DNA of 64,000 nucleotides, taken from NCBI GenBank assembly GCA_051362555.1, contig CM120644.1, positions 7,696,954 through 7,760,953 on the forward strand, given 5' to 3'. The stretch comes from Lingula anatina (taxonomy: Eukaryota > Animalia > Brachiopoda). The position numbers and the translations under genes were made by a program. Within the stretch, counting starts at the first letter, position 1. Each line of letters opens with the position of its first letter. Of this stretch, positions 7,501-61,129 are shown one piece after another. A model generated the notes under the pieces. It had not been told where the DNA came from and ran no database searches. It worked only from the letters and a program-made list of their open reading frames with translations.

Positions 7501-10500
7501 AATCAATAAAAAGAAAAGGTTTCTCACAAATTTATCGATAAATTGTATCGTAAAGAAATGACAAGGAAGATCACTTGTGTTGAAATTAAGATAAAATAGA
7601 AGTTGAGACAAAATTAACGTGTCAATCCAACAATTCCTTTACATAAATCGACTTTTATTTCTCAAAAAGAACAGTTATACATTAATATTTCACCTTGCAG
7701 TTTTAGAATGGTCCTCTTGGGGCGTTTGCAGCAAGACATGTGGAAGCGGTAACCAGGTCAGATCACGAGTTTGCAATGGATACTGTGAGGGGAAAAGCTT
7801 ACAAGAAATGCAGTCTTGTAATATGCAGCCGTGCCGTAAGTCAAAGTAGCAAACCCACTGTTGCATATTATGTTTGATTTAAAATATGTACTCCATTCAG
7901 TAAGAGGGCTATGATGACTTCCCACAGTTTATCTAATTAAACTTTATTAACCGTAAAGGTTAGAAAACAGTGTATGTTTATTATTTGGAATTTTTTTCGT
8001 CTTACCTAAGAAACGACATTAAAAATCCAAATACCTTTGATGTAATATATAACACACATAATTAAAAAACCTGGTACTTTAATCAAACATTATATGGTCT
8101 TTGAATATCGTATCTGAAATTAAAAACTTTTTTGGGGAAAATAAATGCGTACATACACAAAACATGATGGCGTTTACACAAGCACGTGCACTTCAACGTC
8201 AGAGCCTCTCTTTCAGTGGGAATGTGGAGTGTGTGGGGCTCTTGCAGTGTAACTTGTGGCGGAGGTGAGCAGATGAGATCGAGGTCGTGTGAAGGAAGAT
8301 GCCAAGGGATCCAAACTCGGGAATATCAGCCATGCGCTCCACAGCCATGCAGTGAGTAACGATTAAACGAATTCTTCTTTTCAACAAAGAAGTTCTGAGT
8401 ATTCATATTTTGGTTTTCCAATCAGCACGATGTATCTAATTCTCAAACATTTATTTCCAACATAATTGTTATTAAATGACTGCCGTGGCTTTTAATGTCT
8501 GATGAAGGTCTGTTTCACTTGTAAAGATTTATTAGCACATTTTTGAAACTTTTTGCTTTAACCTTTCCAGTCGGTAACTGGGCACCATGGGGTAGATGCA
8601 GTGTAAGCTGTGGTGGTGGAAAACAAATGAGATCCAGAACATGTAGTGGAAACTGTCTTGGTGTTTCCACAGAGGAAACCAGAACATGCAGTGAACAGCC
8701 TTGCAGTAAGTTTGCACTAAGGCTTGCCATAACGAAGAAATGTGAATATGTAGCATCCGCAGAAAAAGGAAGTTTTTTTTTGGCGGCATTAATACGCTAG
8801 TTTTAACACAGTTTGAGCTTTAACACAATTGTGCTAAATCTAAATGAATGTGCAAAATATGATTTAATTGTTAACTTTATTTATTTATAACACTAATTAC
8901 GAACCTTTCAGTCGGTAACTGGGCACCATGGGGTAGCTGCAGTGTCAGCTGCGGAGGTGGCAGTCAGATGAGATCCAGAACATGCAGTGGAAACTGTCTT
9001 GGTGTCAGCACAAAAGAAACCAGATCATGCAGTGAACAGCCTTGCAGTAAGTTGGGGCTGGGATTTTGCCTAAATTTCGAACTGTGGGTTTGTGTCATTG
9101 TTTATGGTGCCATTTGAAATGCACGTTCCATCTGCGAAGAACATATTCACTTCCTTGTACTGGTGGAATTACACGTGTGTGTGACTACACTTAGCACGAA
9201 TCTCTCCAGTGAAAATAGGCATAACATGAATGCCTAACGAGTCCACTTTGATTGTATTGAATTTATTTATTTATTTGAAATGTCAAACTTTCAGTCGGTA
9301 ACTGGGCTCCGTGGGGCAGCTGCAGTGTTACCTGTGGAGGCGGCAGCCAGCGAAGAACTAGAACTTGCAGCGGAAACTGCCTCGGTGTCAGCACGGATGA
9401 AAACAGGGCCTGCAATGAGCAACCTTGTAGTAAGTTTAGACTAGCCATATGCGTACATGCACATTGCAGCTCTCAAACAATAAAAGCAATATGCCTTTTA
9501 ACAAAGGTTTTTCCGATCAAATCATAGTGGATTAGCGCAGTGGACCAACTGCTGCAATTATTATCTGTACAGCCTTGTTAAATTTTCTCTCAGATGAATC
9601 AAATATTTTAAAATTGTTTTTAAATTATTGTTGCATCTGAACCTCATTTTGCTGATTATCGGGCTAGGCTCAGAAACTCTAAACTCATACCCCTCAGAGT
9701 CAATGGGACTCCATGGGGTACTTTTAGAAATAACTACACAGCAACTTGGTTTAAAATGTTAATTTTATATGTGACTTTTTGTTAATTTGAGAATTATTCT
9801 TCACCTTCAGTCAGTAATTGGGCGCCATGGGGCAGATGTAGCGTCACCTGTGGCGGCGGAAGTCAACTCAGAAGAAGAACGTGTAGTGGAAATTGTGTTG
9901 GTGTCAGCACACAAGAAACTAGAACGTGTGGCGAGCAGCCATGTAGTAAGTTCACGTCCCATAGATTTTTGGATGCACTTTTTGAATAGTAGTGAGAGAC
10001 TATGATATCCGATTCGTGTATTAAATCACCCTGTTTTATGCGTTTTAAGATTTTTTCTTGAGACTTAATCTACCGTATCAATATTTTGAAGTTAACGTAC
10101 TTTGCTGTGCTTAATTTTTTCCTATCATAATCTCCTCTTGATTATCATTTATATATGAGTTTTTTTAATGAATAGCGCAATAGTTACCACGGTGACTAAT
10201 TTTACTCTCACTCTCGGAAACTCTACTCTTTCATACAACATACATTAGTCAATCCATTTCAATAATAAATTAATAAAATAAATACTACCCAAGTATATGT
10301 TAACAGTCAGTTTCTTTTTTTAGTAAGCGAATGGGCGTTGTGGGGCAGGTGCAGCGTGTCTTGTGGCGGAGGAATACGCATACGTGAACGGTTGTGTTCT
10401 GGCAACTGTGTGGGCGTGGTCACAACCGAGAAGGAGGCTTGTAATACAAACACGTGCCCAAGTATGTGTATATACGTTCGTAATTGTTATCATATTAATG

Positions 10501-11937
10501 AATTCATTATATTGGAGACATACATTTTAAAGTTCGCAAACAGTCAGTTAATTTTCTGTGTTCATAAGATTTATTAAGTTTATGTGCTAATTTACTTTTT
10601 TATATGTGCTTGTTTCTTTGTTTTCATATTTATCCTTTCATTTTTCACAACATTACACATCTAAGAGAACAGAACCTGTGAGAGGAATTATATAAGATTG
10701 TATAAACAGTATAAGATTGTCTTAACACACAACTTTATTTCAGTCTGGGCTGAGTGGTCGGAGTGGAGCCGGTGCTCAGTGAACTGTGACGGTCCGGGAG
10801 AACAGCTTCGCACGCGTACCTGCATGTACGGGGGCACCCCAGGGGTGGACTGCCCGGGCCTTGCGTCACAGACACAGATGGGCTGTAACCCACAAGCCTG
10901 TAAGTATACTACATATACATTCATATAACAACTAGGGATGCTTTGATCGGTAGAAAGGGTGGCTGGTCTTGTTGGAGTCAAAATGTAGGAGTACTCACGC
11001 CAGGCGCCATGAAATATCGCAACATTGCACCAGTATGCCCCTCGAGCACCGTAGCAGAAAATACACACAAAAAAGGCATGTTTATCCAATCCAATGAGGG
11101 TTCTGGTCATGGACCTTATATATTTGTTTATCTTATAAAAATTAATGTTGCCTCAATTGACATTCTCCGTACATTTCATTCAGGTAAATGTGAAAACATC
11201 GACTACAAGAACTTGGACACACCCGATGACGGCGATGGCGACTGGGAGATTGACATAGATAGAGTAGGTTCCCGTATTGACCTCACTCCCAACTGAGTTT
11301 TCATTTTGGCTCATATTATATGTAATTTTTGATTAAATTGTGTTTCACATAACGACGTAATTAGACTATACACAGAAGTCAATTGAAAAAAAAATCTCCT
11401 CTGTAAAAATAATCAACTTTTCCGGTTGCCCTACATGAAAATCGGACTTGATGGACTTAAGTTTTTTCAGTGCTTGTATGATGGTTCCATGTTCACTGTT
11501 ATCATAATTCTATTGTCTGACACGAAATATGATATTTAAAACCGATGATTTTTTTTTGAAAAGTTCTATCTGCTTCTCGTAAGGACTGTTAATAATATCT
11601 GATGTCATTTTAGGGTTGCCCACCTGCCGACGCTGACGGAATCCCTTACGTGGCAGTTGCTATTACCTGCAGACGCGTGGACACAAAAGAGGACTGGAGT
11701 CAGTCTATCCCCAATGCTCCAATGCCCCCCAACACCGACACGCCGTTTGCCATCCCTTGCCTAGCATCCGGTACCCCAGAGACCTTCTTCCTCAAGGGTT
11801 TCGTCTGTAACCATGCCAACGCGAAGAAGGTACCCGGATGGGAAAAGAAATGCCCGGATTTTGAGGTCGCCGCTAGGTGTTGCCAGCAAAAGATGCCTTC
11901 AATGCCCAATAATTCCACTTATGTTAAGAATAGATAA
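3874..11937 (+). CDS. Secreted-type matrix protein: divergent chitin-binding type-2-like module + 13 thrombospondin type-1 repeats + C-terminal Mucin2_WxxW/CysD-like domain (5' exon(s) not resolved)
   Basis: Phase-compatible GT-AG exons: 3874-4138 (CVFWQC...MPCAPGT), TSP1 exons 4540-4685, 5965-6099, 6423-6563, 6957-7091, 7213-7365, 7701-7835, 8217-8351, 8571-8705, 8912-9046, 9295-9429, 9811-9945, 10324-10461, 10744-10899 (typically WxxWGxCSxTCGGGxxxRxRxC...C...PC), then 11184-11263 ([12 protein letters not shown]) and 11614-11937 (GCP...ITCRR...GFVCNH...[11 protein letters not shown], stop TAG). Confidence 0.88.
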
Positions 11938-15727: not shown

Positions 15728-18700
15728 TTACTTTCGTTTGGCGATGAGCTTCTCTATCTTGTTAATAATATCATTGACAGTGGGTCTTTCCTCTTCTTTC
15801 CTAGCAACGCACGTGATGCAAGTCTTCATGAGGTTGACGTCACGTATTGTGGTTGCTATGTGATGTATAGTGTATCCAAGGCTGTACACGTCAGAAGCAG
15901 TTGACGTAACGTAGCCGTCGTGCGCTTCGGGAGCTAGATGGGGGATCGAGAGACGCTCCGCTTCACTGGAGACTGCGTATTCAAATCCTCTTTTGTATGA
16001 AGCTAAACCCAGATCAATGTATTTAAGTTCAAAATCCTCATCGTCTTTTAATACGATAAGAATATTGCTGGCCTTAAAATCGTTAAAGAGGACATCTCTG
16101 GAGTGAACTGCTTTCATTGTCTTTGCCATGTGCAAGCATATTTCCCGCCACGTTTTCTTCAATTCGGCGCTGATCGGCTGTTTTCTGTCAATCTTACTAA
16201 TGGCATCCCAAAGCGTAAATCCGTCGGCGAAGTTCTCCTGTACAAGCCCCCACTCAAGCTGCGACCCGTCCGTGACGTTGGTGCGCACCATGCCAAACAT
16301 CTTGAGAAACATCCCAGTGCCCCTGAGAACATTCGAGATTCTGATCTCGTGCACTTGCTGTTTATACTTCGGTGGCGTCATGATCTTCACGGCAACACTT
16401 CTCTTCTTACCTTTAGTGATGTAATTTGCGCGATATACAACTGCGTGCGTTGAGTCACCTAATTTCACGGTCCTGTTCTGGTCGCGTTCAAACGAGATCT
16501 CGGAGCGTGGGATTCTCTTGATTACCGCCGCCATGTAAGGATCTCCATCGTCTGTTACATCAGCTTTAGTGTCATAGAAAGGAGGCTCAGGTAAGTTAGG
16601 AGACGCAGGGAATATATCCCCAGTCTTTTTAACCATGGACAGCAATACCTGGTAAAAATAAACCACATAATTTGTTAACATGTAATGCATTTAACGACTT
16701 GTTACTGCTTGAAGACAGAAGTGGGTGCGCCGCAAGAAAACGCAGTATATACTCCAGTGCAGTAGACTACTGCAATCATACTGCAAACATGCCTCAAAGC
16801 TGCTTCGAGTAGGGAGCTCATTAGCATATTTGAAACATGCTTTTATCATGCTGCTAATCTACTGCATTAATGCTCCTCCTCTGTACAACCCTATGTAAAT
16901 ATTGAAGTAGAATTGCAGTAGGCTATACTGCATTTCTACTGCAAATATGCTCCACACCACTACTGCGTTAATGCTTCTTTGCTACTTCGATACTACTGCA
17001 TTTTCGTGCGCGCGCGAATTCTTTTAGTTTTTAACATAACAATCAACGCAGATTATACATACATGTACAGTAGGATCGAGATATCATCACAAATTATCTG
17101 AACATATTGCAACTTTTTAAAATGCAAAGGGTAACCAGGACCCGCCTAGCTATGAAAACTGGACATTCACACATAGATCTGCTGTAAACCTTATCACTTT
17201 ACCTTTAGCTGATCAATCACGTAATCCATGCTAGGCCTGTCTTCTGGGGCCGATTCCATACATTCCTCAGCCAAATCCTTCAGCACGAATAACTGAGCGT
17301 AGTCGTAGACCTCATACAAGGCATAGCCTAGGGAGAACACGTCAGACGCCACTGTGGTCTCCACTCCATCGTGTGCCTCGGGGGAAAGGTATTTCATGGA
17401 TTCCCTCTCCTCGTCAGTAGACTCTGCGTATTCAAACCCCTGCTTGTAGGAGGTGTGTCCAACATCCACCAGAACGGGGTTCCCGTAATGGTCCTTGCCA
17501 AGCCTCTGGATGAGAATATTGTCCGTCTTGAAGTCATTAAATATAACGTCTTTGTCGTGGAACGCCTTGAGTCCTTCCGCCATCTTGAGGCAGATTGCAA
17601 GCCAGCTTTGGGCGTCGAAGTAGACCTTTTTGTATAGGAGATCCCACATGGTGAGCCCGTTCCCATAGTACTCCTGCACCAGGCCCCACTGGACTTTTTC
17701 CTTTACTGTCACTTTTGCCATGCCGTAAGTGACCGGGAACAAGTCGCTCCGGTTTATGTACTCATACATTCTTAATTCGTGAATAATTTGCTTTACACGG
17801 GGCTTTTTGAGGACTTTAACAACCACGCGCTTCTTGTCTCCGCCATCGGACGCTTTGAGATGAGCCAGATAGACGTAAGCGAATGTCCCCTTACCGACCT
17901 CCACGGGCCTTCCCCGCGTGTTCAAGATGATGGTGACGTCATTGCTGGGAATACGTGTCACGGGGGTGGTCACAAATGTGTCGTTGGTGTTGAATAATGA
18001 AGAGGAAACCTGTTCAAAACAAAATGTTGGTCAATGAATTTTGCAATTTCATTATCACTGCTGTGTTAACGTTTCTTTGATATCAGACAACTGCATGTAC
18101 TTCAAATAACGTTATGGTTCCGTGAAGGTACTTACATTTTGTATGGATTCGATAAATTACAGAAATAGACTCTATTGAAAACAATTGCACCACTACATCC
18201 ACCTATGGGAAACTTAATTGTTATCACAATCTGACAGGTAAGGCAGCACGTTTGTTTTACCTTACTTCTTGGCACGTTAGTCTCTGGCAGTGCCGGCGTT
18301 CTGGGGAACATCAGCGACGTCTCGCGGTCTAGCTCTTGTCCTATGCGCTTAAGACTGTTAATGATGTACTGGATGCTGGGTCTCTCCTGGGGGTCCTCCA
18401 CCAAACACTCTTTGCCCAGGGGGAGCAGCTTGACCAGGTCCGTCATGTCCCCAACTTCATAGATGAAGAAACCCAGACTAAAATGGATTGATCAATGGTT
18501 ATTCCAGTTAGTTAGTTCGTGGGCTTTCAAGCTTTAAACGAGTGTGAAAAGCGTGAGGGCCCCCTAGTTACAAAAGCATAGCATAGCTGCTTTCCAAAAA
18601 CTAAAAAACAAAAAAGCTACAGTTTACTTGTGCTCGTGGAAAGAGGGTTGTAAAACCCCGCACGTGCCCCAACCCACCTACCTGATACGTATTGACCTGT

Positions 18701-21700
18701 TATAAACTTGGTGGTTTTCATCCCATGTATTTACAATTTTTCAGCGTAATTATTTTATCTGCGAAGACAATCATTCATCTCATATTAAAACCATTTCCTT
18801 TGACTACTTTATAGTATCAAAATGACGGTCCGTTACCTTGTATTACTTTCAATCAATTTACAATCAACTTTATATGTACCTAAATATATCAGATGCCACC
18901 GTGGTCTTCTCTCCGTCGTGGGCCTCTGGGGCAATAAAATCCATCTCTTTCCGCTCCTCTACGGTCGACTTGGCGAAAGCATGTCCAGTGCGATACGACG
19001 AACAGCCAACGTCAATAAGCTTCATTCTGTACCGTCCGTCCTCCTTGGCAAGTAGCATATTGTTGGACTTGAAGTCGTTGAACAGAACGTGTCTCTCGTG
19101 CAGCTTCTGCATTCCCTCTGCGGCCTGAAAGATGGAGGAATGAGAATGCGTTTGATCTCAACCAGGCACAACTATCGCAATGGGCTTGTGGTTGTTCATT
19201 ATCACATTCTCATCAAACAAATGTGAAAAAAGGTTGAAACGAGTCCGTCAAGTTGAATTAGATTTGGGACCAAAGTTGATGCACCAATGATTAATTGTAT
19301 TACCAGTGATAAATTACATAATTCCTTTAGCGTGAGAACAAACATTTAAATTTCTAACAAAAGACCTTGCTCATCTAAGGCGATTTATTACACCCTTAGG
19401 TCCAAAAATTTAACGACCACTCCCATTCCCTCCATACTGCCTCCCAGGGCCGCACTTCCTTTTGTGAACCCCCAACCCATAAAAGTGTTTCCACTCACGT
19501 CTAGGCAGAGCTGCAGCCAGTTGTGAGGGCTTATAACATCATAAGTGTTGCCACGACTGTGGAGGAAATCCCAAGCCGTCTCTCCATCCGCATAGTACTC
19601 CTGCAATACAGAAATTACATATCTGAATGAGTGTAGGAATTCGACTGTGGCCAAATGATATGACAGGAGTTGAGAAAAGGCCATAGCTTAGCGCCTAAGG
19701 GAAACATCGAAATTGCGCCCCTGTCTAAACATTTGACATCAATTATCTAAGATAACTTTGCAATTTATCAAACTTCATCAGATATCAGTACTTGGAATGT
19801 GGCACCGATGGCACTTGCCCCAAAACGCCATTCTCTAGGTATGCCACTTACAATAACTGTCCGTGTATTTAAATGTCAGTACAGAGAAAAAAGAATTTGG
19901 GATAGATTCACTCTTACACTTTTACCAAAATGCCACAATTATGATTTATGAAATGTAAGATTAAAAAAAAAATGACCGCCTAACTCCGAAAATCGAATCG
20001 ATAGCCCCTTTCTTCTAAAAATAAAAGACCTATTAATCGCATCCCCATCGTACTATCCCTGACTAATCCAACGTATCAAGGAGGTAATTACCCTCCCATT
20101 ACAATAATAACATCGCAACCTTGCTACTAAAACATTTATGGAAAACCTGATGCAATATAAGGGGCTTTTTGAACAACTGCTCTAATTCTCGGGTAATCTC
20201 TCTGCTGAGAGTAAGTGGCTGCAATTGTAAGTATTGTGCTGCCCTCTCTGCCTGTTGTATCTGCCTATGCCCCAGAACCAACATCTACATTGTTAACCGT
20301 CTTTGGGCTCGTTCCAAATGAAGCTATCGTTGTACGTACGCGTAGATCGACCAAGTGAGTTGCGTGGAATACACAAAAGCTGGTGATTATACGAGTACGC
20401 TGGAAACAAGAGAAGGCGTGTTAATCTATTAATTTGATTGCATTCAGCGAGAGTCCCAGCGGAGTTGGATCGATCTACGTAGAACGATAGCTTCATTGAG
20501 AATGAACCCTTTAAGTAGGCGTCCAACCCATACCTGTACCAGTGCCCAGGAGTTCGCTCCCCGAATATAATTTCTCGCAACTCCATACAGATCAGGAAAC
20601 AGACCCGTATCCTTAAGGTACTCCAGCAACCTGGCTTCGTGAAATATCTGCATCGGTTTGTATTCCAAAAGAACTTTAACCGCGGCGTCCTTCTTTTGGT
20701 CGCCTATCGCAACTTTTGCCAGGTAAACGTGAGCAAATGTCCCCGAGCCAATGGCTACTGGTTTTCTTTTGTAGTCCTTGACGTAAGTTATGTTTGTGTA
20801 AGGTAACCTAGTAATGGCGGCGTTGACGTAAGGGTCATCCTTAGACAGCGGCTTCGCTTTTGTCTTGTAAAGTTCTATGGTCGGTAACATAGGGGTTTTC
20901 TTCATATCCCTATACCGCGGCGACTCCTCGGATCCTTCACCGTCATCGTAGAAGAAATCGTCAGGGTTTTCCATGGGGTCGTTTATAGCCGGCAATTCAC
21001 TGTCTTCTCCTTCGTTGTTGTCATCTTCTTCTTCACCCGCATCGAAAGAGTCATTTGTCTCATCAAAATCATCATCGAGGTCTTCACTAAAATGTGACCT
21101 GGATATCAGAAAGGGATCGCTGTCGTCTGCTTTGTTGTCGTGCGCATGCGTATATATACCGGAAGCTGTGGCGTTTCCGTCCGTTACAGGTGTCCCTTGG
21201 CTCCAATTGGACGAGGTAGAGCGTTTGGAGAGGTGCTGGTACTTAAAGAGTGGGTAGACGTTTGGACAGAATTGCGCATTTTCAATGAAATCTGAAAAAA
21301 AAAAAAAAAAAAAAACACAGATGAAAAGCAAAGACAAGAGGAATAATTGCGCGATCTGAAAATTTCTTGAAATTATTGTTTTATAGTAATTTACACCCGT
21401 AAGTTACGCCATCATTAAATGTGTGATATGACCTTTGATTCGGTGAGATCAGTTCATGTCTGCAGCAAATTTCGTGGTTTTACGTTTTATTCTGTAGAAA
21501 AGTCCACACATCAGCGCCTTCATAAAACGATAACCGGAAAAACTACATCTCGCTAATATAAATAGAGCATACAGAATAAGACTGGTGTGATAATAATTTC
21601 CAATTATTCGCAGTCGTCATCATGTCTCATGAGAATATCAATTTAATTATCGATCAAAGTCCCGCGACGCAGTTCTGTTATCAAAAGAATTTTTTATTGA

Positions 21701-38702: not shown

Positions 38703-40345
38703 TTATACTGATATCCCAACCCAAGTCGGCAAAAAATAATCCTCGTGGTTAGTTTCGTAGAATATTTTGGTGTTTTTCAGAGGCCAGTCTTTGTAGTAAA
38801 CGGCGTCGCCTCTCGCCAACCATGCACCCCACCACGAGTACGTCCCCACTGACATGATGGTGTGATTACAACTTGCCAGAAGAGCCAGGTCTAAGGCGCC
38901 ATCCTTAGCGAAGGAGCTATAAATAACACGTGGGTGTTGGACGTTGTCTTTGCACCATGCAAGATCATCAGAAACGACCACGAAAACTATATTGTTGTAC
39001 CTAGTTTCGAAATAAGCCATAGCTTTGGCGAAGTAGCCTGGTGGGGCGACGTTATAACCCTTGTCACTATTAAGCGTCATGCTCTTGCCGTGACGAACGT
39101 GAACGCCTACGTATACAACGTCGCCTTTGGCGGCATCCACGCCGACAGAAGAAGCTCCCGTAGTTAGGAAGTCGTCGATTTTGTTTCGGAATTCAAGCTC
39201 CTTTCTAAATCGAAAGTGTCGTCTCAATTCATCTCCAACGTCTTTGAAATATTTCCACGACTGGAAATAGGTTTTTAATTGGACACTCTTGCGTAGCGCG
39301 TGAAGTCCCTCCGTCCTGTTGTCGTAGAAGGCATATTGCTTCTCGTGGAATTTAGCCATTGCCGCACCTGCCGGCATTTCTCGTGGGACGCTCTCTGGGA
39401 TTTGAAATATTTTTCTGAGTATATCATTGCTTTGTAAAACAGGCGTCATGCCATTAGTTCGAGCGATGCCAATAAGAGAAGCATAGGCGAACATGTGGTT
39501 ACACAACTGTCCTTTGAATTTGACCATAATAAAATGAGTTGACTTTTTCTCAGTAGCTGGTTGTTTTATTGGGAGTGCCACGTGCTGGTGAGTAACGTTA
39601 GCTTTGTAGGGTGGCAGTGGTGTCGATGGTGGTAGTGTCCTTTCAGCCTCTCTGCGGGATTTCGATATATTTCGTAATGGAAACGTCCTTTCAACCTCTC
39701 TGCGGGATTCCGATATATTTCGTAATGGAAACGTCTTTTCAACCTCTCTGCGGGATTCTGATATATTTCGTAATGGAAACCAGTCCGTTTTCGAAAAAAG
39801 TTGAAGTCTAAATTGGGTGATGATGTAAACATAAAGCGCAAAAATCATAAGTCCTATTAACGGCGTACGCCACTTGCCAGGCTTCAAGACCGCCCATAGA
39901 TCTACATTTGAAAAAAAAAAAAAAATGAAACAATATTAACACTCTAAGTCACCTCGACAAACAACAGTATCGAGACGTAGAATAATTTTCCACCACAGGC
40001 AATAACACATACAGGCAATAACACATATATCCTAAAAGATTTTTGATTTTAATAGTAAGATAGGTCAGCCTCTGATAATGAAAATCTTAGTGGAGTAACA
40101 ATAAATCTTATTGAGACCACACAAAATTCATACATACATGTACGATTATATGAAAACTTACATCTATTAACGATGTAAAACAATGATCCAGTTAGATCAT
40201 ACTGACAGTCCCGCTGTAGAAAACTCTCTTCTCTCTGATTGCCCCTATACCCAACATATCAAGCTAATCCAATATCAAGTTTACTCTTAATCTATGTGCT
40301 TAACTTTCAGTAAAACTTACACTGAAAGTGTCTTCTATAAAGCAT
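38703..40345 (-). CDS. Galactoside alpha-1,2-fucosyltransferase-like (GT11 family) type II membrane protein, ~407 aa
   Basis: Short first exon 40345-40321 (MLYRRHFQ, donor GTAAG, phase 1) plus large exon 39901-38703. TM segment LIGLMIFALYVYII, stem, then GT11 motifs GQLCNHMFAYASL, YFQSWKYF, YVGVHVRHG, FVVVSDDLAWC, DLALLASCNHTIMSVGTYSWWGAWL, DYFLPTW. Confidence 0.9.
39637..39780 (-). repeat. Coding 48-bp repeat x3 in fucosyltransferase stem
   Basis: Encodes FPLRNISESRREVEKT / FPLRNISESRREVERT / FPLRNISKSRREAERT. Confidence 0.9.
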
Positions 40346-42290: not shown

Positions 42291-43640
42291 TTAGTAATAA
42301 TCCTCAAACGGCATATTTCCATGTCGATTATGCTGATGCGTTACTCCATATACGGGCCTCCTTTGCAAATGTCCATAAATGGAATAAACGGGTTTCCTGT
42401 AAGTGGACGTCATAAAGTTCGAGTAGGGATACAAATTGGGCTCGTGTGTAGTTGTCCAAATTCGGTTCATTCCTCGTGCTCGTGTCGCTTCTCCTTCTGT
42501 GCAGCCGTTAAAGAAATAGTCCTTCTCGGACATTGGCCAATCGGCACCGGATCGCGACCAGCGTCGCAAGTTGCACGTGCCCGGTTGGTACATCCATGGT
42601 CGCTGTCCTGGCTCACGAGGGTCAACCTTCCTCAGTTCTTCCTTGACATCGCGGCTCAGAGGGAATCCGTTGTCGTACCACTTGTCCTGCCAGTTCTGGA
42701 AATAAAGGAATCATCCTACTATGGATTTTGCATGACCACAAGCTACTTGTACCTGGTACAAGTAGAAATTAATTCCATGAGTCAGAGAGACAGTCTTTTG
42801 GTGAAGGATAGGAAATATTAGTCAAGATATCTGATACGTGTGCATCTGTCTGGAATATGTTCCGTTTCACTGTTAATTCTTGACATTCACAATGACCATT
42901 CATTTCATTTTGCGAAGAATCGTAAATAAATGAAGGTCTCGTTATCAAAATACATCAAACAATGACTAATGACTATTTTGACAAAGAAAGCTATCCTGTT
43001 CTACCTTAAATATTATGATAAATTAATATTATGATCTGTTTGCAAATAGTATACTAACATGAGTAACGTAATGCTACCTTTGTAAGTACATGTACCCCCA
43101 GCATTATCTATTTAATAATTCTGTTTAATAAATTAATATAATAGTATATCCTGTATGATTTTGCAGATCACAAGCCTACCTGGTAAGACTGCCTGCCTAG
43201 AGGTCTAGTGTACTTCTCAGGAACCTCGCGCCTGCAATTCAAATACGGTGCAAATGAAAATTATAATTCCAACAGTCAAATGAGTATAAAATTTTGAAGC
43301 GAAGCCGACCCCCCCCCCCCACCCCCCTTGACGTGGGATTCGGGGCCCGAATTTTTTTGGTATTTTAGAGGGTGAACGGTGTCCTTTGGTACGTTTTAGA
43401 ACTATGATTCAGTCAGTCAAAATTCTAATTTCAAGAGGGACCGTTGTTTTTTGTTCAGAAATCGAAGGGGGATGGGGGGTGGGCGGGACCCCCCTGACCC
43501 CCCCCCCCCAAAAAAAAAAAAATCCACCAATATGTACAAGTATTGGGTGTACAGTACTAGTGATATGGGGGTTCGTGAAATGCCTGTACATGTGAACTGA
43601 TTCTTAAGGAAAGAAACAATGCAGGAAGAATCAACTAAAG

Positions 43641-44486: not shown

Positions 44487-46220
44487 ATGGCGGGGAACCC
44501 AGCTGTAGCACATCTACCTGTGTCTTTAACATGGTCCCACGTGAGAGAACGACCGCCACCACTGGCAAGCATGCCAGCGATGTGGTAAGTGTTATCTCTG
44601 GTCTTTAAACCATAAATAAACTCGACTAAAAAAACCCGGTGAAGTTAAGTGTAGCACTCTAAGTGAAATAATTTTAATGGTCTTATCATCATGCACTGTA
44701 ACTATATATATATATATATATCCCAGTACATGCAATGATTTCTAGTAAAAGATCAACAATGTTATTTACTGACAAACATGACAACGGTGTACTTTTAGGG
44801 TTATTCATCATGCATATGAAGAGTCCTACAGAAATATCCCGCGTTCTTATAAATATAATAATAAATTGCAAATGCTAACAAAAGAATTCATTTCAAAAAT
44901 GCGTTTTCAAATAATAATAATAAAGGATTGAATGAAAAGTAATACTAAAACTTGTTCAAAAATCGTATTTCTCTCTTTCAAAGGCAAGCCAAACACCACC
45001 TCCACCCACCATACCACAGCAGTCACTGTGATCACGCCAAGGTAAGCTGACACTGCTTTATTAACTCTAGCTGGTACTCACTAGTTAATATTCACATGGC
45101 AGAAGAAATGTGTTCATTCTAATGTAAAAGGGACAGTATTTTATTTATATTCATCAGACATAAGCCTAGGTTTCCAAAAAAAAAAAAAAAAATCTGAACA
45201 TTTATCGAATCTCAGACAAGACGAATCTCAGGAACCATCAGAATTGAATTAAAAAACGCAGAACTTCGTGTTTCCAAGGAAAAAAAACCCTCATGTCTGA
45301 TTCATAGGCCTGGCTATATTTTACTTTGGAGTTCAAGTAACTAAAATAAAAAAAGGTGAAAAATAAAAATACATTCATACACGTAGCAAAAATTTAAAAG
45401 ATGTTACATATCATTACAAAAATTAACATAAAACAATAACGTAATTGCTGAACTTATTTTTGCATGTTACTAAAAGAAACACAAAAGGTGTTTTTTGTAA
45501 AAAAAAAAAAAAATCAATACTATTTCCACAGTAGTTGCCAAACTTTTTTTACCTTTCTTACTTTGCCTTTGTAATCATAGATTTTTTCCTGTTCGTAGGG
45601 AGGCTGGAAAAAGTGGTCTATGGGATGTGCAGGCCAACATGGCGACTGGCACGCTGCCAGACCCTTTGCTTATGAACCAGACTGGTATACAAGAAAGGTG
45701 GACTATATCAGAGAAGGTAAAAATAACCTCAATTCTTATGGAGAACTATTAAATTACACCAATAAAAGTGTAATTAGACAAATGTTTTAAATTTGCACTG
45801 GGCATATTTTAAGACATAAAGAGGCGCTTCATTAGCTGTACTATATAAATGTGATTGATAACAATAATGATAAAATAATAAAACAATAAATAAATTTAAA
45901 ATAACTGTCAACTTTTTTGATGTTTTAAGTGACCTGATTTTGTTATCATCAGAAAATAATATTACTTTGCAGGCAACTACAAGTACAGGTCTTGGCCCTG
46001 GGATCAAGCATCACACGCCACCACACGCAAAGGGGACGGAATACGCACATTCACAAACGAGACCATACGACGTGAGGTATTAGAGCCACGTAACATAGGC
46101 TACACAGGAACTCCACAGCAATTCCCGTATGAGGTCCCACCACCAAAGTGGGGCTTGTACCATCCACATAACTATGAAGAACCAATCAGGTTCAACCATT
46201 TTCCTCCAATCAGAGGGTGA
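44487..46220 (+). CDS. Uncharacterised 173-aa His/Pro/Trp/Tyr-rich protein (4 exons)
   Basis: Exons 44487-44584 (AACATGG start, MAGNPAVAHLPVSLTWSHV..), 44984-45041, 45599-45716 (GGWKKWSMGCAGQHGDWHAARPFAYEPDWY..), 45973-46220 (stop TGA) splice in frame with GT-AG sites. Not in the ORF track because the exons are short or lack a start codon. Confidence 0.75.
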
Positions 46221-53718: not shown

Positions 53719-56700
53719 ATAATACAACAAAAAGAGCTAGTGTTGCATTGTGTGTAGATTCATTGAAAATTCCAACAGCTATAAAAAAAGGAAAAATTGA
53801 TAAAGGTAGTTCGGGTGAAGTGAATGATACTGCACCAAGTGGGATGGCGTTTCGCAGTTTTTTACCGAACACTGGGTCCTTTTTCTTGGCTACTGCCGAG
53901 CATTTCTTTCAGGCATCAGCAGCTAATAAGCTTTGTAGGTAAGATGAAGTGTTTTGAATATGAAATATGTGACAAATGGCATTTAAAAATTGCGGAAATC
54001 TTTCATTTTTGATATTAAAATATTACCTCGTTGTTTGTTTATATTAAATATTTCTTTGGTTTTATTCAGTTTGATTCTCTGTCTAATTAGAATATTCGTC
54101 ATTCATAGGAAAGTTTTAAGAAGCAAAGATGCTATAGAAGCAGAGCAGAAAAGACAACAAAATACAAACAAATATATTATTCATCCTTTTAGTAAGTTCA
54201 GGTAGGTTCTTTTAAGTGGTCAAACTACAAAATGTCAGTCATTTCAGAAAAGGATATCTTACTTTTTTTTTAATTGGACATGATTTGGGAAATAATATGA
54301 TGGTATATTATTATACATATAATTATGTTATTATACTGTGTGAAAAGTACTGAATTGAGGTTAAAGCTCTCTCTCCTTTCTTTCTCATTTTGCTTAGTAT
54401 ACTATCTTTATGGGTGTCCTCAAGCTGCAATTGGAAGTGTCTGATACATTCTTAATTCTTTAAAAATTACTTATTTACATGTGATACCACTTTCATTTCA
54501 ATTTGTGATAAAGTAATGTAAAGTAGTAGTTTGTAAAAAAAAAATTATGAATATTAGTTGTACTTCTTGTACTGCTGTTATATGGTAATGCTATTATTAT
54601 AATATACGTAGCACCTTGTTTTCTAAATTCAGATGGTTTTGGGACCTTTTCATGGTGGCAGTATTATCTGTAACATTGATAATCCTGCCTGTCAACATTG
54701 CCTTCTTCCCAAATGATCCAGACTCACACTGGGAAGGCATGAACATTGCAGTAGATGTCATCTTTTTTATAGATATAATTCTCAACTTCCGCACTGGATA
54801 TATCAGAAGTGAAACAGAAGAGGTAAAATCTGAGTTGTAATAGATTTGGTGGATGGGTCTGTTAGCCTTCCAAATGTTAATATTTTTCTAGAATATATAA
54901 ATCAATTAAAGTAAAAAATGAAAGATGAATATAGACTAAAATGAAACTTTATCTTGGCCTATTTGATAATTGACCTGGTGTCAGTTGTTTATTTTATTTG
55001 CTAAAACAAACAAATATATGTAAACAAAAATAAAATAAAATAAAAATAAATAAAAATTATGTGAAAGATACAAATGGACATTTTTTTACTTAGGTCATAT
55101 TGAGCAGTAAGAAAATTACAATTAACTACCTGAAAACCTGGTTCTTCCTAGATTTCATTTCTACAGTTCCATTTGATTATTTTTTCCTTGCTTCAACTGG
55201 GACAGCATCCAGAGCTTTAAATGCACTCAGGATGCTGCGGTGAGATTAAAATCTGCTTGATTGTCAGGAACTTTATTTTGATCAATATTGCTGTAAAAGA
55301 TAATTTAACCTAAAAAAAGTACTTAAATTCCAACATGCATTTCTCAGTTAAAGGTTACACAAGAAGTGTATTTATTTATTTCTTTATTTATTTAATGTAA
55401 GGCCACACTTTTTTATTTTTATGGATGACATCCTCTGGGTACCCCAAAATTGGTGCGAGAGGGCGAAAAAAAAAAAACAGTCCAAAAAAAAAAAAAACTG
55501 CTTAAGTAAAGGAATGCTGTCAGTACACAGCTGGAAACACAAATTTAACCACAGAAACACGTATCAAACTAACAATATGTCTTTATCCATGCTCTCAAAA
55601 TATTAAAGCATTGTGAATACTTCGTAGAAATGTAAAAAAAAAAGTCATGAATTGATATACTTCATATTACCAAATCTATTTGAGGTTATTTCATGCATTC
55701 ATTTGGTATAGCAATCAATAAGACAAATATCAATCAAACAGTGTGTCTTTATTTGTATTCTCAGAATATTAAAACATTTTGAACACTTCACAGAAATGTT
55801 TAAAAAATGATGCAAAGATATGCTTAATACTACCAAATCTATTAAAGGTCATTTCAGACGATGCCATTTTATCAACTTCAACTCACACGAAGCAGCTAAA
55901 CTGTCAGGTGGCCTGTCCGACCTTCAGCCCACCAAATACCTCGACGCCCTTGTCGACCCTTTTTTCGCTACAGAAAACCTATTATTACTAGTAATGTGCT
56001 GCTTTATACAGAATGTCACAGAAATGTTTCGGCCGCCGCCAGCCTTTCGCACAATTGTAAAAAGGTGATATCTCCAGGCCCAATATCAATGGCATACCAA
56101 TCCAAAACGATAGCGCCCGTTCTCTTTATGACTTTTATTGTTGTGTAATTTGAAAGTAATCCTAGAGATGAATTTGACAGCAAAGTGGCCGCATTTCCAC
56201 GTGGCGAAAATACGCATGCGCAGAAAGCTCATTTCCTTGCAAATTCAATAACAACGTTTGCGACAACCGACTTCGTTGGGGGCTGGGGGGGTTTTTTTTT
56301 TTTTTTTTTTTTTTTTTTTGGAGAACGGGCGAAAATCCATGCGTGCGCAGGATGTCATCCATAAAATTAAAAAAGTGTGGCCTAAGTTCTAATTTGGAAT
56401 ATTTCACCATTTGAAATTTTTTTGTAAAGTTTTACATTAAAAATGTGCATGTTGTGTTATACTTTGAATTTATATTAACTTGAAAAAACTAAACTATGAA
56501 ATAAGATTTCAAATCACTAAAATACTTACATGTGAAATAACTCTATGTTTTTAGGTTGACAAAACTTCTCAGCTTGCTACGGGTATTCAGAATGGCCAGG
56601 TTCCTCAGGTATATTAACAGGCTAGAGGAGGTATGCACTAGTTTACTTTGATCTTTATTATGGAGAGTGATGTACGTGGTAGTAGTTACATGTAAGTGAA

Positions 56701-59700
56701 ACTCCTTCCCTGTTTTATCCACAATGTTTCCCATTTTTTTTTATCAAAACTATTTTTTTTTTTTGAGAAAGCCCAAACTGTGCATAATACTGGGGTGTTT
56801 AGAAGAGTGCACAAAGTAACAATTTTCAGTTCAAGACTGTGTGATGGTATTAATTAAATAATGTGACTTTTACAAGTCCAGTGATTATTTTGTAGATTGT
56901 GCATTGTCTTTTTCACAGCTCTTAGATATACCTGGCAGTGTTCTCCGCATTATCAATCTTGTCATCATGATTCTCCTGTTGTCCCACTGGAATGGCTGTG
57001 TACAGTACTTAGTTGCGTTTATTGAAGACTTTCCGGAGAACTCCTGGGTAGTCAGGAATGGATTGCTGGTGAGTACAGTAGTTATTATTGAAAATGTGTC
57101 AATAAGTGAACAATATTTTTACAAGCTATTTACTTTAAGGTAGATTTTTCTATGATTTCTTATATTTTACGTATGTCATTTCTTTAGCACATAATTCTTA
57201 CATTCTAGGTAGGAGAATTGCCAAGCGCTAAATTTCATCATTTTTGAAAATAATTTATAATAGTTCAGAATAAGCATTTTATTTAATGTTCACATCATTA
57301 TCCCACAGACTTTTCTTTATATTTGGATTATTCTTGTGTATAGTACTGTGTATAGTGACGGTGCAGAAAATGAAGCTCTTTCTGTGTGTGGCAGCCTTGC
57401 TCAAAGATATTGTTGACAACACTATTTTTTCCTTTAATTTTGTAGCATGCCCCTGTGACTGACAAGTACATTTTGTCTGTGTTTCGTGCAATGTCCCACA
57501 TGTTGAGTATAGGGTACGGCCGGGCACCTCCACTTAACAACACAGAAGTATTACTGGTCATGATCAGCATGTTATTGGGAGCAACATTTTATGCACTGTT
57601 CATTGGGCACACGTCCTCCTTGCTTCTGATGATTGATACCTCTGGGAGAGCCTATAATGAAAAGGTAATTGTTTCATTCTTCTTTCCCTAGTTTTTTTTT
57701 CTTTTGTAGGCGCCTGAAACTACTTGGTTTGATAAGTACTTAATGTGCCTCTTCAGAGCCGTATCTCACATGATTACTATTGGCTATGGACGGTTTCCCC
57801 CTATCTCCAACACTGACATCATTGTCATCATGTTCAGCATGATCGTGGGTGCGATTTGTTATGCTCTCTTTGTAGCTTACTGCTCTTACCTGCTGCTGAC
57901 TTCTGATGCATCAGGCAGGCTATATGTTGAAAAGGTACATTAGTTCTTCTCTCTCTTTTTTAGGTTTTTAAATTTTTTTTTTTTTTTTGTATTTGTAAGG
58001 TGCTCAATATCCAGTACTCCCTGTTTAAAAAGCCATTTATCTAATAATTATCTGACAGCAAAATAATGAATGAATGAGGTATAAAATGTAACCAGTATAA
58101 TCATTATATAAGGACTTACTTAATTTGTCAGATTTGAAGTCAAATCTATGTTATATATCTTAAAATAGTATTCATTATTTATCTTCTATGTAGTACCAAT
58201 ACTTGTGCCTCTTTATTTATAGACAAATCAAGCTAAAGAATATATGCGATACCGGAGAATCCCAATTAAAACTCAAAGGAGGGTGATTGCTTATTATGAG
58301 CACAAGTATCAGCGCAAGTACTTTGATGAAGATGGCATCATAGGAGAAGGGAACATTTCTCCTGCTATCAGACAGGTAGGATGAGGTGAAAATTATGATA
58401 CCGAATAGTGAATGCACCCATGGCATGGTCTTTCCTTAAGTTAGCAGTAGCGTATCTGATAACAAAGCGCTTGGTCTCCACTGAAAATATAAACTGAGTT
58501 TTCTGAAACCACTGAAAAAGATGATGATCAAAATTTTTTGGAGAGCTTTTTTTTTTCCACTTGCAAAAATCATAGTAGTTTTATTTTCAAAAACACTGAC
58601 ACTTATTGGCAACAACAGTACACATCATCCCTCTAAATAGTAAGATAGCAATGATCTTATCGCTTTGCAGGAAATCTTGGTACACAACTGTAAAGATTTG
58701 GTGGCCAAGGTGCCTTTCCTGGCCCAGAGTCCACCAGACTTCATGTACGATATCATCAGCAAGCTGAAATTTGAGGTGTTCCTGCCTGGGGATACGATTA
58801 TTCAAGCAGGTGCTTTGATAGTTTATTATTTTGTTCGTTAATAAAACTACAGATAGATTGCTAGGTAACAGGTAGTACAAATAACGGTGAACTAAACTGC
58901 TCCATACTTTATCAGAATTCCTGTCGCTGGTCAGCCTTGTTGCTGTGGCATCACGTTAAATAATCTCTCATAAAAAAACATGATTTTGGTTGGGAATTGG
59001 AATTGTGAATTCTTTGATAGCACATATTAGTAGAGTGTTCACTGTGTTCTAGGCAGGCGAGGGGATGGTATGTTCTTCATAGAGCACGGCAGGGTGGACG
59101 TGAAGCTGATGAATGCTGGGGTGGAACTGGTGGTTAGCAGTCTGGGAGATGGAGCATACTTTGGTGGTGAGTCAGGTTTTGCTGAAAGGGTCACTGCACT
59201 GGCTGTTTGTTCAGGATTTTGATGGGAGAGAGGGAGATAGGCCTTATTTATTATTGTTTTCCATTGCTAAGCACTGCATGCAGAAACAATTTCATGGAAA
59301 CTACATTGTGTGTGTTTGTTGGAGGGGAGGGGGGGGATAGCTGCAGTTAAAAATTCACCAATAGTGATTGTATTTAAAAATTTGTCTGACAAAGACTTAA
59401 TGATGTAGTTAATGATCCATACTCATGTGTGCAATATTTGATTTTTCCTCCTCATTTTCAGAGGTATCTCTTATCCTTGACGAAAGAAGAGTTGCTACCA
59501 TTGTGGCTGCTGAGATTTGTGACGTTTTCTTTCTGTCTAAAGCTGATTTTGAAAACATCCTTGCTGAATATCCAGCTATGTCAAACATTATGAAGAAGGT
59601 TGCAGAGGAGAGACTACAGCAAACCACACAGGCCCTAGGAAGTACTTGGGAGTAAGTGGAATTCTGTGAGAACTGTGTACATAATACCTTACCATATGTT

Positions 59701-59961
59701 ATGTGCATATGTTACCATTTTGCCAACTTCTCCCCCTAAAATACTGCCACCACATTTACCCAAGCCTACTTCTCACGGCTAACACACACACACATCCATA
59801 TATACCTTCCTATCAACTTGAATGGGCTTACTCCCGCTGGTGGTACAACACCAGGAGATGCTATTGACTCTTCAATCCTGTAGTTATGATAAATGTCACA
59901 TTTGACTGGCTATTGGAGACAATATCATACAAATTTGCATTGTTACAGTAGATAGATTTAC

Positions 59962-60001
<40 letters not shown>

Positions 60002-60259
60002 TTCACTTTTAATCATTTATTTTATAGAAATGAGGAGACAGACCCCAGTATAATTCCAGAGGTCAGTATGAGATCGCAGTCAGCCCGTCTTAAAGATTTT
60101 GATGACCAGAGTGAGGGCACAGTGGAGGAGAGTGAACCCTCCCAACCAGATGAGGCTATTGTGGAGGACGAGACTAACAAAAAAGAGAAAAAAGTTTTAC
60201 CTCCATTGAGAACTGAGAGAAACAAGAGTGGCAAAATTTTGACAAATATAGATGTTTGA
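53719..60259 (+). CDS. Hyperpolarization-activated cyclic-nucleotide-gated (HCN)-like cation channel; 5' end uncertain (in-frame ATG at 53844)
   Basis: Exons 53719-53938, 54109-54201 (HCN-domain-like NKLCRKVLRSKDAIEAEQKRQ..IIHPFSKFR), 54633-54822 (S1-S2, WDL..LNFRTG), 55094-55239 (YLKTWFFLDFISTVPFD), 56555-56630 (S4 RLTKLLSLLRVFRMARFLRY), 56919-57068 (S5, SHWNGC), pore exon 57446-57664 or 57710-57934, 58223-58375 (C-linker), 58671-58809, 59053-59166, 59462-59651 (CNBD YFGEVSLILDERRVAT), 60028-60259. Confidence 0.9.
55401..56382. mobile_element. Non-autonomous DNA transposon, PIF/Harbinger (Tourist)-like, in an HCN intron
   Basis: ~34-bp TIR GGCCACACTTTTTTA[T/A]TTTTATGGATGACATCCT at both ends and TAA target-site duplication (55398-55400, 56383-56385). 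Confidence 0.8.
57446..57664 (+). CDS. HCN-like channel pore exon A (pore helix, SIGYG filter, S6)
   Basis: Phase 0-0 exon, 219 nt, TAG acceptor and GTAAT donor: HAPVTDKYILSVFRAMSHMLSIGYGRAPPLNNTEVLLVMISMLLGATFYALFIGHTSSLLLMIDTSGRAYNEK. Confidence 0.88.
57710..57934 (+). CDS. HCN-like channel pore exon B (duplicate; TIGYG filter, S6)
   Basis: Phase 0-0 exon, 225 nt, strong polypyrimidine tract with TAG acceptor and GTACA donor: APETTWFDKYLMCLFRAVSHMITIGYGRFPPISNTDIIVIMFSMIVGAICYALFVAYCSYLLLTSDASGRLYVEK; open frame, no stops. Confidence 0.85.
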
Positions 60260-60317: not shown

Positions 60318-61129
60318 AAATGAATAGTTTGCTCCTTGGCCTGCATAAGTTTATGGAGCATTTTTTTTTGTCATGTAGAGTTTTTACCTGCATCGGAAAA
60401 AACCTACTTCATGGCTCTATAAGTAGCATTGTAAAGAATAGCAGTCATTTGTATACTTTCAATGCATATGTGTTTTCATTTAGAATATATTTCTGAGAGC
60501 ATTATGTATATTAGTGCCACGTAAGTGCCATTGCTAATTTATCGCCAGGTTCACGGCCACTTGTGTATGTATCAATTAATGTTAAAGATTCTTGTTTATT
60601 TAAGGTGTTTAATGATTCTCATGAGTAAGACAGTTGTGTGTAAAAGTATTTATAGTATTATTAATGTTGTTAAAGTAGAGATTTTTTAGGAAGGAAGGAA
60701 GGCCCTGTTTGTGATACACAATTGTAAATGAATAGTTTGCTCCTTGGGCTGTATAAGTTTATGGAGCATTTTTTGTCATTTTGAGATTTTATTAGCGTCG
60801 GAAAAAAACAGTTTACTACTTCATGGCGCAACACGTAGCATTGTAAAAATTTGTCAGCATGCAATGGCATTAATGTTTTCATTCAGAATATTCTTCTAAG
60901 AGCATTATGTATATTAGTGCCACGTAAGTGCCATTGCTAATTTATCGCCAGGTTGACGGCCACTTGTGTATGTATCAAGTGATAGTAAAGATGCTTGTTT
61001 GTTTAAGGCGTTTAATAATTTTCATAAGTAAGGAAGTTGTGTGTAAAAGAATTTATAGTATTATTAATGTTGTTAAAGTAGAGATAGTTTTAGGGAGGAA
61101 GGCCCTATTTGCGATACGCAGTTGTAAAT
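60318..61129. repeat. Two-copy ~408-bp tandem duplication downstream of the HCN stop codon
   Basis: AAATGAATAGTTTGCTCCTTGG at 60318 and 60726; long shared blocks such as GAGCATTATGTATATTAGTGCCACGTAAGTGCCATTGCTAATTTATCGCCAGG. Confidence 0.9.

Follow-up and report, generated by a model that had tools for sequence, protein, structure and literature searches.

The HCN-type channel gene of the brachiopod Lingula anatina contains two tandem copies of its pore exon, a feature that is real and, judging from sequence comparison, very likely functional. Both copies have open frames within one gene structure, their duplication is old, their divergence is asymmetric, with the second copy (exon B) evolving faster than the first (exon A), and the B branch has been constrained. 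We consider it probable that the copies are used singly: splicing of A or B would give two channels from one gene, both hyperpolarization-gated cation channels that share a voltage sensor and a nucleotide-binding domain, and exon B would likely alter gating, conductance and cesium block and make the pore somewhat less K+-selective.

The gene was assigned from L. anatina contig CM120644.1, in a 64,000-nt stretch of DNA (the window) whose numbering is used throughout; all parts of the gene lie on the + strand. It spans positions 53844-60259 and includes 13 coding exons, both pore copies counted. The first coding exon of the RefSeq model (53844-53938) was placed by its match to RefSeq XP_013401461.1 (P0003 in our protein collection) and starts with the ATG at 53844, although the frame stays open upstream as far as an acceptor at 53719. 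It is followed in the gene model by exons for the HCN N-terminal domain (54109-54201; also identified by Pfam as Ion_trans_N), S1-S2 (54633-54822) and S3 with the start of S4 (55094-55239), by the S4 voltage sensor (56555-56630, from the alignment), which reads RLE where canonical HCN channels have QWE, and by S5 with most of the turret (56919-57068), the putative common donor for both pore copies. Pore exon A (57446-57664; 73 aa), the conserved and annotated copy, encodes the pore helix, a SIGYG filter and S6; a 45-nt, pyrimidine-rich GT...AG spacer intron read from the sequence (57665-57709) separates it from pore exon B (57710-57934; 75 aa), the faster-evolving copy, which encodes a pore helix, a TIGYG filter and an S6 with FVAYC. 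Downstream, the gene model continues with the C-linker (58223-58375), the putative common acceptor, the C-linker end and start of the cyclic-nucleotide-binding domain (58671-58809, with Pfam), the cyclic-nucleotide-binding domain (59053-59166, with Pfam), the phosphate-binding cassette (FGE...RR) and C-helix (59462-59651, from alignment and Pfam), and the last coding exon, stop codon included (60028-60259). No internal stop occurs in any splice model, whether with A (598 aa), B (600 aa), both (673 aa) or neither (525 aa).

Exon A is a 100% match to XP_013401461.1, and the complete exon-A model differs from that protein at one of 598 residues. This sole difference, at protein position 520 (window position about 59643), is Thr in the window and Ala in the RefSeq protein, and is apparently due to another allele or assembly. 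The exon-B isoform was absent from the protein collection searched: it would be about 94% identical to the exon-A protein, yet the RefSeq 90% cluster has one member, with exon A. A homologue search with exon B alone gave 35 candidates, none at E ≤ 0.001, a result that carries little weight. Public annotation therefore probably misses an isoform of this HCN gene.

Several other features were observed in the window. On the - strand, positions 15728-21403 hold tandem protein-kinase-like genes or exons, with two long ORFs matching Pkinase, and positions 38703-39935 hold a single-ORF glycosyltransferase of family 11 (alpha-1,2-fucosyltransferase-like) whose stem contains a short tandem peptide repeat. 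Several similar short exons at 5853-10577 (+) encode thrombospondin type-1 repeats, as identified by a Pfam run on one of them. Upstream of the channel, two small genes form a divergent pair, one at 42291-42710 (-), which had no Pfam match, and one at about 44487-46130 (+), read by eye; an Atlas look-up of a neighboring ORF returned only scores of 0.80 or less. Shortly after the channel's stop codon, an imperfect direct duplication of about 400 nt was seen by eye at about 60320-60700 and 60725-61120 (+).

The original prediction of two intact, consecutive phase 0-0 pore exons of 219 and 225 nt, 45 nt apart, was confirmed at the positions given above, as were the filters SIGYG and TIGYG and the S6 motifs FIGH (A) and FVAY (B). 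Both exons are open and flanked by AG and GT, have equal phase and each complete an intact frame, as expected of mutually exclusive tandem exons. The entire turret had also been ascribed to each exon; the pore helix, filter and S6 are indeed there, but of the turret each exon holds only the final residues (seven ahead of the conserved Tyr in A, nine in B), and the preceding exon at 56919-57068 encodes most of the S5-pore loop. The copies are 57% identical in protein and 62% in DNA, and differ at 30 of 68 aligned positions. The best PDB match for both was HCN1/3/4 (E = 8e-18 for A and 1.4e-16 for B), while hERG matched A far more weakly and was absent for B. A pore profile built on 42 homologous pores plus exons A and B, and scanned against the window's six frames, matched only these two exons (108 and 94 bits) and revealed no third copy. 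The 288-nt intron downstream was suspected of harboring a decayed third copy, but this was rejected, as the intron had no profile match and its DNA scores fell within those of shuffled sequences (69 and 246 of 300 shuffles scoring as high).

All three HCN Pfam domains (PF08412, PF00520 and PF00027) were detected above cut-off in XP_013401461.1. The alignment shows a long S4 with basic residues at every third position, interrupted by Ser, and the gate residues are present, with Arg/Asn in S5 and an Asp in S6 that is kept in both pore exons. The QWE motif reported at the S4 end of canonical HCN channels (PMC7078272) is replaced by RLE, while close relatives read KLE, KME, RPE or RLE, and P0059, which appears to be the hyperpolarization-gated NvHCN1, reads RFE. 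These sequences without QWE imply that the motif is not required across the HCN family; its replacement in Lingula is shared in kind by the clade, and is common to isoforms A and B. By sequence, the gene is thus a member of the HCN family, for which hyperpolarization gating, mixed Na+/K+ current and modulation by cyclic nucleotides are predicted.

Within the family, the gene belongs with little-studied relatives of the sea-urchin channel SpHCN2. A tree of 35 proteins without the pore segment (quick search, midpoint root, no non-HCN outgroup; two of 37 rows were dropped as missed by the motif pattern) grouped the Lingula gene with Tubulanus, Owenia and two further proteins (SH-aLRT 99). This group is sister to echinoderm channels including SpHCN2 (SH-aLRT 100 for the resulting 11-row group), and the SpHCN2-like group stands apart from canonical Ih/HCN1-4 in the same tree. 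SpHCN2 (NP_001028182.1, P0318) resembles the Lingula gene at the S4 end, in the phosphate-binding cassette and in having Ser in its filter, which reads SIGFG rather than SIGYG or TIGYG. One pore version was present in five of the seven listed members of the SpHCN2 cluster, those for which a sequence was printed. SpHCN2 is a flagellar protein (Galindo et al. 2005, as cited in PMC7024835), whereas the Lingula gene is known from sequence alone. Sea-urchin flagella are described as containing about 18,000 HCN2 copies, with the flagellar HCN driving recovery from hyperpolarization (PMC7024835), and the ion selectivity of SpHCN2 itself is described as not established (PMC9614928). A starfish paralogue in this clade (P0043, P0045, P0048) has a GIGFG filter. 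The fish HCNL proton channels (PMC7306766) were also considered, by description, and set aside; exons A and B both keep the GYG filter.

The SIGYG filter of exon A had been read as a deviation from CIGYG, a view that no longer holds, Ser being the normal state in the SpHCN2-like clade. Among 313 pore motifs from 323 fetched proteins, a redundant and vertebrate-heavy set, the first filter residue was Cys in 255, Ser in 53, Gly in 5 and Thr in none, so that TIGYG was absent from all 313 fetched motifs of other HCN-family pores. This distribution marks exon A as the ancestral type and exon B as the odd one. Literature searches, which did not use Lingula as a term and mostly did not cover subscription journals, found nothing on this brachiopod gene.

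Comparison of the copies over 68 aligned codons gave a saturated pS of 0.78 and a pN of 0.26, with pN below pS in all 2000 bootstraps and only two of 17 four-fold sites identical. The saturation of synonymous sites implies that the A/B duplication is old, in support of the tandem duplication proposed at the outset. Constraint on B was also apparent in a conserved-column test based on 42 non-redundant, ungapped pores from 310 segments: at the 49 sites where A equals Tubulanus, B has changed in 2 of 25 conserved columns vs 15 of 24 variable ones (p = 7e-5). Of the 23 near-invariant columns, 20 are unchanged in B. This avoidance of conserved columns indicates that B has been under selection and, together with the pS and pN values, bears out the suggestion that selection has acted on both copies. 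B has nevertheless diverged faster than A, with 17 vs 4 changes relative to Tubulanus (p = 0.007), 12 vs 2 relative to Owenia and 10 vs 5 relative to SpHCN2 (not significant). Its branch in the pore tree is 1.03 long vs 0.098 for A, and seven of its residues are absent from the 42 non-redundant homologous pores.

Faster evolution could include recent relaxation, and exon B might have been used formerly and now be silent, a recently abandoned relic caught before decay. This scenario would be consistent with the absence of B from the RefSeq model and from every protein of the collection searched, and with its donor, GTACAT, which is further from consensus than the GTAATT of exon A; an unconstrained copy would moreover have about an even chance of remaining open after 0.1 substitutions per site. 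However, the frame and length of B are intact, its acceptor is strong with a long pyrimidine tract, its changes are confined to variable columns, and other donors of the gene are just as far from consensus. We therefore regard a silent relic as improbable.

Single use of the copies is suggested by the spacer between them. A steric threshold of about 50 nt has been described for the distance from 5' splice site to branch point (PMC7969005), and the entire spacer, at 45 nt, falls below it, whereas the remaining 11 introns, compared within this one gene, are 170-1315 nt long. Apart from those of the splice sites, the spacer holds three A's (positions 4, 12 and 26); our guess at the branch point would be position 12 (57676), ahead of the long pyrimidine tract. 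U1 at the donor of A and U2 at the branch point of B would be unable to bind together, and A and B thus could not be joined. Retention of the spacer would bring in an in-frame stop. Joining the two exons would keep the frame, so that nonsense-mediated decay would not remove the product and a physical block would be needed. The 17 inverted repeats listed were weak, short and AT-rich, without a convincing docking/selector pairing (no shuffle comparison was made). The steric, either/or use put forward in the original prediction is in this way supported by inference; exon B is presumably used, and used in place of A. Exon A would provide the main isoform, and that with exon B would be minor or confined to certain tissues. 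Sperm is one possibility, suggested by the grouping of the gene with the flagellar SpHCN2 in the tree.

The HCN-type channels have a six-transmembrane topology, and a second pore module after S6 would begin on the wrong side of the membrane. Although an A+B product would be in frame, two pores were found in none of 163 homologues of at least 450 aa. Similarly, the locus was seen in one assembly, but copies with 62% DNA identity and saturated synonymous sites are not alleles. An assembly artefact or allelic collapse, or routine inclusion of both exons in one transcript, is accordingly a highly improbable account of the pair.

The original prediction held the Thr copy to be more K+-selective, TIGYG being the K+-channel signature; exon B alone fits the T-[VI]-G-Y-G filter of K+ channels. 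A markedly more K+-selective, inward-rectifier-like pore, by which splicing would alter the electrical effect of the channel, would also be in keeping with the absence of this filter from the 313 other fetched HCN-family motifs, and further changes near the filter, such as M to V and L to I in the pore helix, could compensate in a way that single mutants do not. The available mutants nevertheless point the other way. HCN4 C479T is less K+-selective than wild type, with a PNa/PK of 0.49 vs 0.29 (PMC2766643), and so is HCN2 C400T, which shifts the reversal potential by about +12 mV and activation by about +10 mV and alters Cs+ block, while C400S keeps the wild-type reversal potential (PMC3506978); Ser and Thr at this HCN2 site are the residues of exons A and B, respectively. 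Two Trp and a Glu have been named as pore-helix differences of K+ channels, where HCN channels have F plus a basic residue and Ser (PMC2766643). Exon B lacks the Trp pair and its acidic partner, and keeps the HCN-type F-R and Ser in the pore helix and the Arg after GYG. The predicted gain in K+ selectivity is thus at odds with the C-to-T mutants of HCN4 and HCN2 and with the HCN-type pore helix, and we consider it unlikely. Since the mutants come from mammalian HCN2 and HCN4, and 30 of 68 positions differ between the two exons, their effects may not transfer.

In S6, the cavity-lining positions described for HCN4, Y507, I511, T515 and Q519 (PMC8294335), correspond to Y-I-S-L in A and to Y-V-S-L in B. 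Substitutions from A to B at 512 (G to A), 513 (H to Y) and 516 (S to Y) are larger but fall outside the cavity lining, and more likely affect packing and gating. A difference in blocker sensitivity had also been anticipated; a large one now appears less likely, as the four cavity-lining positions hardly differ. In the explanation that we prefer, both pores would stay mixed Na+/K+ pores, with B fine-tuning the pore through the filter Thr and the bulkier S6 residues off the cavity lining.

The same residues could instead indicate that exon B is spliced in but yields a poorly or non-conducting subunit that assembles with A or another HCN into mixed tetramers and there modifies or restrains the current. 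Its long branch (1.03 vs 0.098), the bulky S6 substitutions and the replacement by Ile of the conserved Thr before the S6 Tyr would be consistent with such a role, as would the second copy in Owenia, which is more altered still (16 of 23 near-invariant columns kept). Sea-urchin sperm also hold two HCN subunits whose assembly is described as an open question (PMC7024835). However, B keeps the filter GYG, the equivalents of Y507, F510 and D522, and 20 of 23 near-invariant columns, and its AYC at 512-514 also occurs in a Nematostella channel (P0079) that, from its tree position, is apparently NvHCN2, reported as functional with weaker Cs+ block (PMC4640657). The AYC motif thus appears to be tolerated, and a poorly conducting B is a minority reading, slightly ahead of the K+-selective pore in our estimation.

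The arrangement had been thought undescribed in HCN channels, which proved incorrect: in both the Owenia orthologue and decapod Ih, the homologous exon is exchanged between annotated isoforms. Ouyang, Goeritz and Harris-Warrick in 2007 reportedly showed that the P-loop and the whole of S6 are alternatively spliced in lobster (Panulirus) PIIH. Like the Owenia pair, the decapod isoforms examined here are database gene models. In decapod Ih (e.g., Cherax XP_053632939.2 vs XP_069941625.1), the homologous 73-codon segment exists in two tandem copies that are used singly in the models; annotated isoforms swap the copies in Cherax and two other decapods, and among 22 decapod Ih proteins, pore I was found in 19, pore II in three and both in none. 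A profile search listed 150 proteins, four with two matching stretches. Two of these matches were ORFs whose frame runs on from a first decapod-type pore copy to the second across 18 and 19 codons (54 and 57 nt), and a Portunus model contained one pore copy together with a portion of its partner; the fourth, P0298, was rejected as a two-pore protein since it looks like a single pore split by an intron. The decapod spacer (54-57 nt in the two read-through ORFs) is thus very short, as is the 45-nt spacer of Lingula. Decapod Ih belongs, however, to the canonical Ih clade and not to the SpHCN2-like clade of the Lingula gene, and its copies are both CIGYG, with 63 of 73 residues identical in Cherax, whereas the Lingula copies are 57% identical with SIGYG and TIGYG.

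Two further observations concern the arthropod channels. In the decapod isoform pairs P0309 vs P0311 and P0310 vs P0307, a short block of the C-linker/nucleotide-binding region differs in addition to the pore exon, so that decapod Ih has a second alternative segment. The insect pore P0062 (Cryptotermes) groups with decapod pore II (P0305/P0306, Cherax) and not with pore I (99/76), hinting that the arthropod duplication may predate insects, or that pore I may be the derived copy.

In Owenia fusiformis, a member of the same clade as Lingula, CAH1788600.1 (P0326) and CAH1788601.1 (P0044) differ only in 30 N-terminal residues and the same pore exon. As in Lingula, one copy is conserved with SIGYG and the other is fast-evolving (1 vs 20 changes), but the divergent Owenia copy has CIGFG where Lingula B has TIGYG, does not group with B in the best tree, and is known from isoform protein models, whereas the Lingula pair is known from genomic layout. 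This second Owenia exon is strongly altered (SQM, CIGFGS, no post-filter proline and no S6 Asp) and may be a non-conducting or decaying copy. Searches that did not use Owenia as a term found no print description of the isoform pair. The best pore tree joins A and B (96/92), and both have lost a Trp and a Thr that relatives keep; B and both Owenia copies share a turret two residues longer. A shared origin of B and the divergent Owenia copy is compatible with the AU test (p-AU 0.37), although these tests have low power and reject no alternative, even B with the crayfish exon (p = 0.37, 0.33 and 0.21). A second pore might have been kept or re-invented repeatedly among the lophotrochozoans of the sperm-type HCN clade (brachiopod and annelid), with a truly K+-selective B by which splicing switches between a depolarizing pacemaker and a hyperpolarization-gated K+ current; we hold this extended scenario to be just as unlikely as the K+-selective pore considered above.

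A comparable design has been published for NALCN, whose tandem pore exons 15a/15b and 31a/31b are mutually exclusive and alter a filter residue; in a lophotrochozoan, their use is biased by tissue (Senatore et al. 2013, PMC3557258). NALCN is a four-domain channel in which one domain is swapped with an E/K charge change (PMC3557258), whereas in the Lingula HCN each subunit of a homotetramer would have its complete pore module swapped, with an S/T filter change.

On these comparisons, the Lingula pore pair is an unannotated, unusually divergent form of a known splicing design; what is new here is the far greater divergence of the copies, their occurrence in the little-studied SpHCN2 clade, and a natural Thr filter unseen in fetched relatives. 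The duplication of the same exon in two distant HCN clades, with a spacer of 45-57 nt where measurable, suggests that pore swapping may be a recurring route to diversify HCN channels. Why these channels pass Na+ despite a GYG filter has long been asked, and mutants engineered to carry Thr shifted in the 'wrong' direction. A natural comparison would be offered by isoforms A and B, in which the voltage sensor and nucleotide-binding domain are identical while the filter has Ser in one and an evolved Thr in the other; they would thereby test which residues of the pore determine selectivity, gating and Cs+ block. The probable missing isoform also concerns a poorly studied HCN clade that is linked to sperm signaling.
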